DNA of 48,151 nucleotides, taken from positions 1-48,151 of IMG/VR virus record IMGVR_UViG_2617270976_000012; one strand, given 5' to 3'. A program made the position numbers and the translations under genes. Below the pieces are notes generated by a model. That model had not been told where the DNA came from. It saw only the letters and a list, made by a program, of their open reading frames with translations, and made no database searches. Of this stretch, positions 23,243 to 23,575 are shown in pieces. This stretch comes from a virus. Taxonomy: Duplodnaviria; Heunggongvirae; Uroviricota; Caudoviricetes. Every line of letters starts with the position of its first letter. Positions within the stretch are counted from its first letter, which is position 1.

Positions 23243-23575
23243 ATGAAAATGAAAAGAAACCTTCCGTTAATTATTTTGTTGTCTTCTCTGGTTATGGGCT
23301 GTACGCAACATAAAACAGATATGCCCCGACAGTTGGTTAAGGCATTACCACAATATCCGGCCTATGCAGCGGCAAATTATATAAAGGGACGGGTTGATGT
23401 GAAGTTTGATATTGGTGCTGATGGTACTGTCACCCGAATTGAGTTTATCCGTTCAGAGCCGCACCATTTGTTTGATGAGCAGGTTGTAAAGGCGATGGCA
23501 AAATGGCGATTTGAGAAGGACAGGCCGTGTAAAGGCGTGAAGAAAACGTTTATCTTTAGTCCTTCTGCACCCTGA
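23243..23575 (+). CDS. Lipoprotein with TonB C-terminal-like domain (moron)
   Basis: Lipobox LVMGC after signal peptide; YPAYAAANYIKGRVDVKFDIGADGTVTRIEFIRSEP...AMAKWRF resembles the TonB_C fold pattern. Confidence 0.5.
   Translation: MKMKRNLPLIILLSSLVMGCTQHKTDMPRQLVKALPQYPAYAAANYIKGRVDVKFDIGADGTVTRIEFIRSEPHHLFDEQVVKAMAKWRFEKDRPCKGVKKTFIFSPSAP

Follow-up and report, generated by a model that had tools for sequence, protein, structure and literature searches.

TonB-dependent transporters admit iron, vitamin B12 and siderophore-antibiotic conjugates into the cell, and they are also the entry route of many colicins and microcins and of several phages. Interference with this route has been described at two points. 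Exported fragments of TonB, comprising residues 33-239, 103-239 or 122-239, inhibit the TonB system (bioRxiv 10.1101/2020.01.05.895219), and two phage lipoproteins, Llp and Cor, target the transporter FhuA from its periplasmic side, their acylation favouring an in-plane encounter with it (bioRxiv 10.64898/2026.03.26.714494).

The window analyzed here is a stretch of 48,151 nucleotides from a virus of the class Caudoviricetes (IMG/VR record IMGVR_UViG_2617270976_000012), a lambda-like prophage whose late region carries a gene for a small TonB-like protein. Judged by its sequence, the product is a member of the TonB_C family and at the same time a bacterial lipoprotein, lacking the architecture of the TonB energy transducer. 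The gene itself is already annotated publicly; new here are the boundaries of the moron that carries it, the lipoprotein family spread across chromosomes and prophages, and a footprint of Fur boxes upstream of the family members.

A moron cassette between the lysis and terminase genes

In a global alignment, the prophage of E. coli Ecol_867 (locus L022) is 95-99% identical to the window on both flanks and lacks a 604-bp segment at 23093-23696, which comprises a promoter-like region, the gene and 121 nt of 3′ sequence. The edges of this cassette share the microhomology AACCG(G/A)A, and its GC content is 0.42-0.43 against 0.52-0.57 in the flanks. Upstream lie the genes for a lysozyme (21168-21701) and for Rz (PF03245; 22183-22656), in which Rz1 (PF06085; 22409-22594) is embedded. 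Downstream of the gene comes ynfO/DUF3950, encoded on the minus strand, followed by HNH and the genes for the two terminase subunits, small and large, which places the insertion point between Rz/Rz1 and ynfO/HNH/terminase.

A consensus scan detects a sigma-70 promoter-like site on the plus strand at 23189-23216, composed of ATGACC, a 16-nt spacer and TAGAAT, with a TG before the -10 hexamer. The site ends 32 nt before the ATG at 23249; its score alone is no better than that of shuffled sequences, and the phage 21 allele preserves the -10 region, ATTGT(T/C)AGAATAAGAC. In a lysogen of strain LF82, the orthologue carried by prophage Perceval, a phage-21-type allele, is expressed 8-fold above the local background (PMC9928086), a value that refers to Perceval's 71.8%-identical allele and not to that of the window. 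With this related allele transcribed in a lysogen, the cassette can be regarded as a moron, its own expression from the prophage being predicted. No intrinsic terminator-like site was found downstream of the gene, where the 3′ region folds as shuffled sequences do (z=0.10), so that late transcripts would also read through it. Searches for Rfam families in and around the cassette found none.

The first-pass annotation had described the gene as a late-region moron occupying the place where many lambdoid phages carry bor. The 604-bp insertion, the dip in GC content, the promoter-like site and the expression of the orthologue in a lysogen bear out the first half of this description. The second half also stands, given that the phage 21 gene adjoins bor in the same late-region neighbourhood; the bor gene is absent from the window.

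Several other features of the prophage were recorded. A conserved unannotated block of about 140-170 nt (22960-23100) lies directly upstream of the cassette insertion. With 4539 occurrences spread over 1911 of 5426 E. coli genomes, and as many as nine in a single genome, the block is commoner than the TonB-like gene, and its conservation in phage 21 is still about 88%. Rfam searches returned no match for it, and neither strand is predicted to fold into an unusual RNA structure. Small open reading frames surround Rz, two of them (71 and 73 aa) between the lysozyme gene and Rz at 21825-22186 and one of 80 aa after Rz at 22662-22904. The 73-aa frame has a hydrophobic stretch, and none of the three has a Pfam match. 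At 12061-12236 in the early region, a sok antitoxin RNA (Rfam RF01794, 112 bits) points to a toxin-antitoxin locus of the hok/sok type. A cluster of three tRNA genes, Met(CAT), Arg(TCG) and Arg(TCT), occupies 16388-16637, and a full-length STnc100 sRNA (RF02076, 146 bits) lies at 17475-17684, between this cluster and a 657-aa open reading frame (17866-19839) upstream of the lysis genes. In Stx phages, the toxin genes are located just downstream of such a tRNA cluster; the list of open reading frames for the window holds no Stx-sized frame just after it.

Lipoprotein signal and TonB C-terminal domain

The open reading frame had initially been delimited as 23243-23575. The frame is real and the ATG at 23243, which would give a product of 110 aa, is in phase with it, but this start is probably 6 nt too early. 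The ATG at 23249 is preceded by GGGA 8 nt upstream and is the annotated start in RefSeq, in phage JLK-2012 and in phage 21; it is therefore the likelier start, and the prolipoprotein encoded on the plus strand at 23249-23575 (TGA stop codon at 23573-23575) most likely has 108 aa.

The N-terminus of the prolipoprotein reads MK(MK)RNLPLIILLSSLVMGC. A type II signal peptide (23249-23302, plus strand), recognized from the sequence and from a pattern test across the family, comprises a basic n-region, a hydrophobic h-region and the lipobox V-M-G-C, features that together identify a lipoprotein. The signal sequence MKRNLPLIILLSSLVMG ends directly before the cysteine predicted to be acylated, whose codon is at 23300-23302 (Cys18, or Cys20 with the start at 23243), and the +2 residue is Thr. 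The PROSITE-style lipobox pattern is matched by this protein and in 21 of the 22 family members, down to 35% identity, which sustains the earlier description of a small lipobox-bearing protein. Across the family, position +2 is occupied by Thr, Ser, Ala or Val, and in no member by Asp. Sorting of lipoproteins between the two membranes follows the Lol "+2 Asp" rule, by which a +2 residue that is never Asp points to the outer membrane, and the mature lipoprotein is accordingly predicted to reside there. A low-confidence tether of 7 residues (TQHKTDM; about 7-8; 23303-23323, plus strand), delimited by an AlphaFold2 (AF2) pLDDT below 70, follows the cysteine.

The remainder of the mature protein, residues 28-106 in the 110-aa numbering (23324-23560, plus strand), forms a TonB C-terminal domain (CTD) according to Pfam, TIGR01352, phmmer, AF2 and Foldseek. 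The Pfam model PF03544 (TonB_C) is matched with E=1.3e-14 and 54.8 bits, against a cut-off of 24.6, and TIGR01352 with 54.5 bits, against 27.1. The best NCBIfam models are the enterobacterial TonB equivalogs (PRK10819), scoring 74 bits against cut-offs of 265-448 and matched only at profile positions ~152-240, the last ~85 positions. In a phmmer search of the PDB, the best matches are the CTDs of E. coli and Salmonella TonB (1u07, 2gsk and 2grx; E ~1e-15 to 1e-16). Lipoprotein residues 28-106 align without gaps with residues 153-231 of E. coli TonB at 37-42% identity, and the domain spans approximately the TonB chain of the BtuB:TonB complex (2gsk_B 1-78 of 81, corresponding to query residues 28-105).

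An AF2 model generated from the 22-sequence family alignment reaches pLDDT values above 94 over the domain and shows the TonB CTD fold, a three-stranded sheet with two helices. The top Foldseek matches are all TonB CTDs, with TM-scores of 0.88-0.92 and rmsd values of 1.0-1.3 Å: 2gsk_B (TM 0.92, rmsd 1.0 Å), 2grx_C (rmsd 1.2 Å) and 1u07 (rmsd 1.3 Å). The complex of the FusB CTD with ferredoxin (9hi3) is also among the structural matches of the model. A search of the BFVD viral structure library returned no TonB_C-like match at E<=1e-3. The first-pass annotation had noted a resemblance to the TonB C-terminal domain and had named structure prediction as a check on it; the two family models above their cut-offs, the TonB CTDs recovered from the PDB and the confidently predicted fold all confirm the resemblance. 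At the other end of the protein, the cleavable lipoprotein signal occupies the N-terminus, and there is neither a TonB-type transmembrane anchor with the SHLS motif nor a proline-rich spacer.

Within the family, the PxYP motif and the aromatic positions corresponding to TonB Y163, F180, F202, W213, Y215 and F230 are either conserved or invariant. The counterpart of TonB R166, a residue that reportedly contacts the transporter in the FhuA-TonB structure, is an invariant Tyr across the family, and N45, H75 and D78 are family-specific invariant residues that differ from TonB. The counterpart of TonB Q160 is variable within the family and is Leu in the window protein; in TonB, the Q160L substitution is the classical change that suppresses mutations in the TonB boxes of FhuA and colicin M (PMC11658791).

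The fold also bears on a functional label that the protein has received. PHROG 1267, designated "Rz-like spanin", matches it over its full length (E=5.7e-43), and the gene lies on the late strand just after the lysis cassette in phages of E. coli, Klebsiella and Sodalis, which would suit a spanin-like lysis protein. We consider such a role very improbable and rejected the spanin identity: a complete and separate pair of Rz (PF03245) and Rz1 (PF06085) is encoded upstream, sister prophages dispense with the gene, homologues exist outside prophages, the orthologue is expressed in a lysogen, and the protein is a globular TonB CTD rather than a proline-rich o-spanin. PHROG 1267 is this TonB_C lipoprotein family, and its label is likely an annotation error, one that phage genomes will inherit.

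Relatives, Fur-box-like sites and distribution

Profile searches recover relatives of about 104-120 aa in Klebsiella, Raoultella, Pantoea, Erwinia, Sodalis and others, nearly all of them with a lipobox. The members from Klebsiella, Raoultella and Pantoea are chromosomal and lie in ordinary neighbourhoods, and no transporter or iron gene is conserved around the chromosomal homologues. In a Klebsiella phage and in a Sodalis prophage, the gene again follows the lysis genes, the homologue of Sodalis sp. RH21 (L019, 2830-6354) being flanked by genes for a phage lysozyme and a DUF1441 protein. Two further genes were noted in the vicinity of family members. A SlyB-like (Rick_17kDa_Anti) lipoprotein gene precedes the lipoprotein gene in Klebsiella and Raoultella, and a DUF1440 membrane-protein gene adjoins it in the Raoultella chromosome (L003, 6731-7294); Klebsiella phage ST13-OXA48phi12.4, which carries the lipoprotein gene, also has a DUF1440 gene (L009, 277-903).

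Candidate Fur boxes were identified by scoring 19-mers against the consensus GATAATGATAATCATTATC over an 8-kb locus for each homologue. The Fur-box-like sites of the homologues end 12-16 nt before the ATG and are in no case outscored by another 19-mer within the 8 kb, though some are tied for first place, with scores of 15-16/19 in Klebsiella and Raoultella, 17/19 and 14/19 in two Pantoea lineages, and 17/19 in Sodalis. Because the upstream flanks differ between lineages, the shared site constitutes a phylogenetic footprint, and the 17/19 box of the Sodalis prophage homologue suggests that phage-borne copies may be iron-regulated. In the window, a Fur-box-like 19-mer, AATAAGACTTATTCTTATC, with 13/19 matches to this consensus, lies over the -10 hexamer at 23214-23232 and is overlapped by a perfect 8+8 palindrome, AGAATAAG/CTTATTCT, at 23212-23228; only ~0.02% of the window's 19-mers score as high. 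In the phage 21 allele, the Fur-box segment is deleted and the score is 11/19. From these sites we infer that the ancestral gene was a member of the Fur regulon and that this control has become weaker or disappeared in the copies of E. coli phages, which is consistent with expression in LB in LF82.

Such regulation raises the question of an iron-starvation accessory factor, which would help or tune TonB-dependent uptake and serve the phage as a fitness gene for iron-poor niches. It could do so by readying the TonB boxes of loaded transporters, by selecting among transporters, or by binding substrate in the manner of FusB and ferredoxin. The strong Fur boxes at the chromosomal and Sodalis prophage homologues and the 13/19 remnant in the window favour this role, as do the FusB CTD-ferredoxin complex (9hi3) among the structural matches and the sitABCD iron/manganese transporter, a lysogen-expressed moron also carried by prophage Perceval (PMC9928086). 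We nonetheless find it doubtful, given that the protein has no means of energy coupling, that neither iron genes nor transporter genes are conserved beside its gene, that a helper of such kind is without precedent, and that the window allele has a degenerate Fur box and the commonest E. coli allele has lost it.

The Fur boxes weigh differently on a Bor-like role, in which the protein would stabilize the envelope or modify the surface, its TonB_C fold binding peptidoglycan or another outer-membrane protein. An affinity of the TonB CTD for peptidoglycan has been proposed in the literature, and the bor niche, the position adjacent to bor in phage 21, the SlyB-like lipoprotein gene that the family members of Klebsiella and Raoultella follow, and the invariant residues in which the family differs from TonB are all compatible with it. 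However, the sequence is closest to that of enterobacterial TonB itself, with the N-terminal PxYP segment kept, and the Fur boxes indicate iron physiology, which leaves an envelope role improbable in our estimation.

The gene was found in 15 phage records. Copies with 100% identity are present in four Stx1a-converting phages and in Lys8385Vzw, that of JLK-2012 is 99% identical, those of phage 21, ev017 and Perceval are 72% identical (Perceval 71.8%), and that of a Klebsiella phage 40%; the phage 21 copy is annotated as "TonB C-terminal domain protein". Among 5426 complete E. coli genomes, 1616 (~30%) contain the gene, counting two alleles together, with up to four copies per genome. The alleles fall into two groups, one at roughly 95-100% and the other at roughly 75% nucleotide identity. 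Presence of the gene is not tied to the type of the phage tail tip (J): phages that share it have different J tips, and the J C-terminus of the window phage is of the O157/Stx-phage type. A full-text literature search returned no functional study of the lipoprotein, the LF82 expression table being the only data point.

Between the window and phage 21 alleles, dN/dS is 0.13 at a dS of 1.37, which indicates a protein under purifying selection and not a remnant of tonB. Database labels such as "partial tonB-like" and "TonB fragment" nevertheless suggest a dead piece of tonB, and it is true that only the last ~80 TonB residues are covered and that some records are so named. This interpretation is extremely improbable in view of the dN/dS at that divergence, the family's own conserved signal peptide and lipobox, a length that stays constant across genera (about 108-111 aa) and the confidently predicted fold; the pseudogene identity was rejected on the dN/dS and the conserved lipobox. 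A recent capture of the 3′ end of a host tonB by a phage is likewise unsupported, the lipoprotein family pre-existing in Klebsiella, Raoultella, Pantoea, Erwinia and Sodalis.

A putative tethered competitor of TonB and its known counterparts

Taken together, the analyses make it quite possible, although we advance the idea tentatively, that the lipoprotein engages TonB boxes on the periplasmic side of TonB-dependent transporters but transduces no energy, and would thus be a tethered competitor or decoy. The cassette would function as a lysogenic-conversion gene whose product is exported and lipidated at Cys18. A short tether of about 7-8 residues would hold a complete TonB CTD at the periplasmic face of the outer membrane, where the transporters and the N-termini of incoming group B colicins present their TonB boxes, and the domain would bind these boxes as TonB does, by β-strand addition along its third strand. 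Having no transmembrane anchor, no proline-rich spacer and no contact with ExbB/ExbD, it could deliver no energy and would therefore compete with TonB from the membrane. Uptake of siderophores, group B colicins, microcins and albomycin would be damped or gated, and infection by TonB-dependent phages, e.g. T1 and phi80, would be reduced. In this scheme, we infer the outer-membrane location, the binding of TonB boxes and both the sign and the size of the effect. Superinfection exclusion or colicin protection, which the first-pass annotation had put forward, is a plausible outcome, as one possible consequence of a decoy.

The decoy proposal draws on the ungapped match to TonB, the rmsd of 1.0 Å to BtuB-bound TonB, the coincidence of the domain boundaries with the TonB chain of that complex, and the retention of PxYP and the aromatic residues. 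It draws further on the Leu at the Q160 position, the lipobox conserved in 21 of 22 members together with a +2 residue other than Asp, the Fur boxes that link the homologues to iron and TonB physiology, the moron status of the cassette, the dN/dS of 0.13 and the occurrence in 1616 of 5426 E. coli genomes.

Several observations argue against it. The TonB side chains reported to contact transporters have not been preserved (Tyr takes the place of R166, and position 160 varies), and N45, H75 and D78 could serve a partner other than TonB boxes. A general blocker would be expected to deprive the host of iron, yet the gene is tolerated in ~30% of E. coli genomes, and homologues behind Fur boxes are predicted to be switched on just when the cell depends most on TonB-dependent uptake, which fits poorly with a simple blocker. 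Transporters far outnumber TonB, so that blocking all of them would require high expression. The shortest TonB fragment reported to be inhibitory (122-239) is longer than the domain of the lipoprotein. Finally, the PADLOC defence models contain no matching family (the best hit is at chance level, E=0.023), and the gene does not track J type.

A broader form of the decoy proposal, which on present evidence we would call rather unlikely, extends it to the whole family. Enterobacterial TonB CTDs tethered to the outer membrane, often under Fur control, would be natural non-energized competitors for TonB boxes that temperate phages of E. coli, Klebsiella and Sodalis have captured repeatedly beside the lysis cassette; Fur control would have decayed in E. 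coli, and lysogens would be partly resistant to T1, phi80, group B colicins and TonB-dependent microcins. The probability left over by the decoy and the four rival interpretations goes to some other function.

Irrespective of mechanism, prophages bring a natural lipid-tethered mimic of the TonB tip into ~30% of complete E. coli genomes, and Stx1a-converting phages and phage 21 are among its carriers. If it does compete with TonB, it would represent a new prophage route for altering host susceptibility to rival toxins and phages, possibly also to siderophore-drug conjugates, and would provide a ready-made tool or lead for TonB inhibition. Competition would also explain the purifying selection on the gene, and it would establish a principle of exclusion and bacteriocin protection directed at the docking site of the energy coupler instead of a single receptor. 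The predicted Fur control of the chromosomal relatives makes them a candidate new component of enterobacterial iron-starvation physiology. Should the protein have no effect on TonB, it would be one more lipoprotein moron, for which the labels "spanin" and "TonB fragment" would still need correction.

Compared with known systems, the protein is closest to the TonB CTD itself (~150-239; 1U07, 2GSK and 2GRX), with which it shares the fold, 37-42% identity, PxYP and all core aromatic residues. TonB, however, possesses an inner-membrane anchor, a spacer and an ExbB/ExbD region, whereas the window protein has none of these and instead carries a lipid anchor predicted to sit in the outer membrane; its family also differs at R166 (Tyr) and Q160 (Leu or variable). 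HasB of Serratia and FusB of Pectobacterium are, like the window protein, TonB_C domains that have diverged for particular partners, but both keep a transmembrane anchor and transduce energy, which the lipoprotein cannot. Exported TonB fragments, which inhibit TonB-dependent transport, provide the mechanistic model for the decoy proposal; they are soluble, longer and overexpressed laboratory constructs, in contrast to a natural, lipid-tethered gene product reduced to the minimal domain.

Among phage lipoproteins, Bor/Iss of lambda and phage 21 occupies the same niche between the lysis genes and cos/terminase and is a small outer-membrane lipoprotein expressed from the prophage, as is predicted for the window protein, although the two are not homologous and bor lies on the opposite strand. 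Cor (phi80, N15, HK022 and mEp167) and Llp (T5) are small phage lipoproteins of the inner leaflet of the outer membrane that inactivate FhuA and exclude phages. Their fold is unrelated and they have no sequence similarity to the window protein, for which Pfam, PHROG and fold searches return only TonB-type domains and no Cor/Llp homology, so the likeness would be functional and is hypothetical. The two modes of action would also differ in reach: Llp acts allosterically and on FhuA only, whereas a decoy built on the TonB CTD would in principle address any TonB box.
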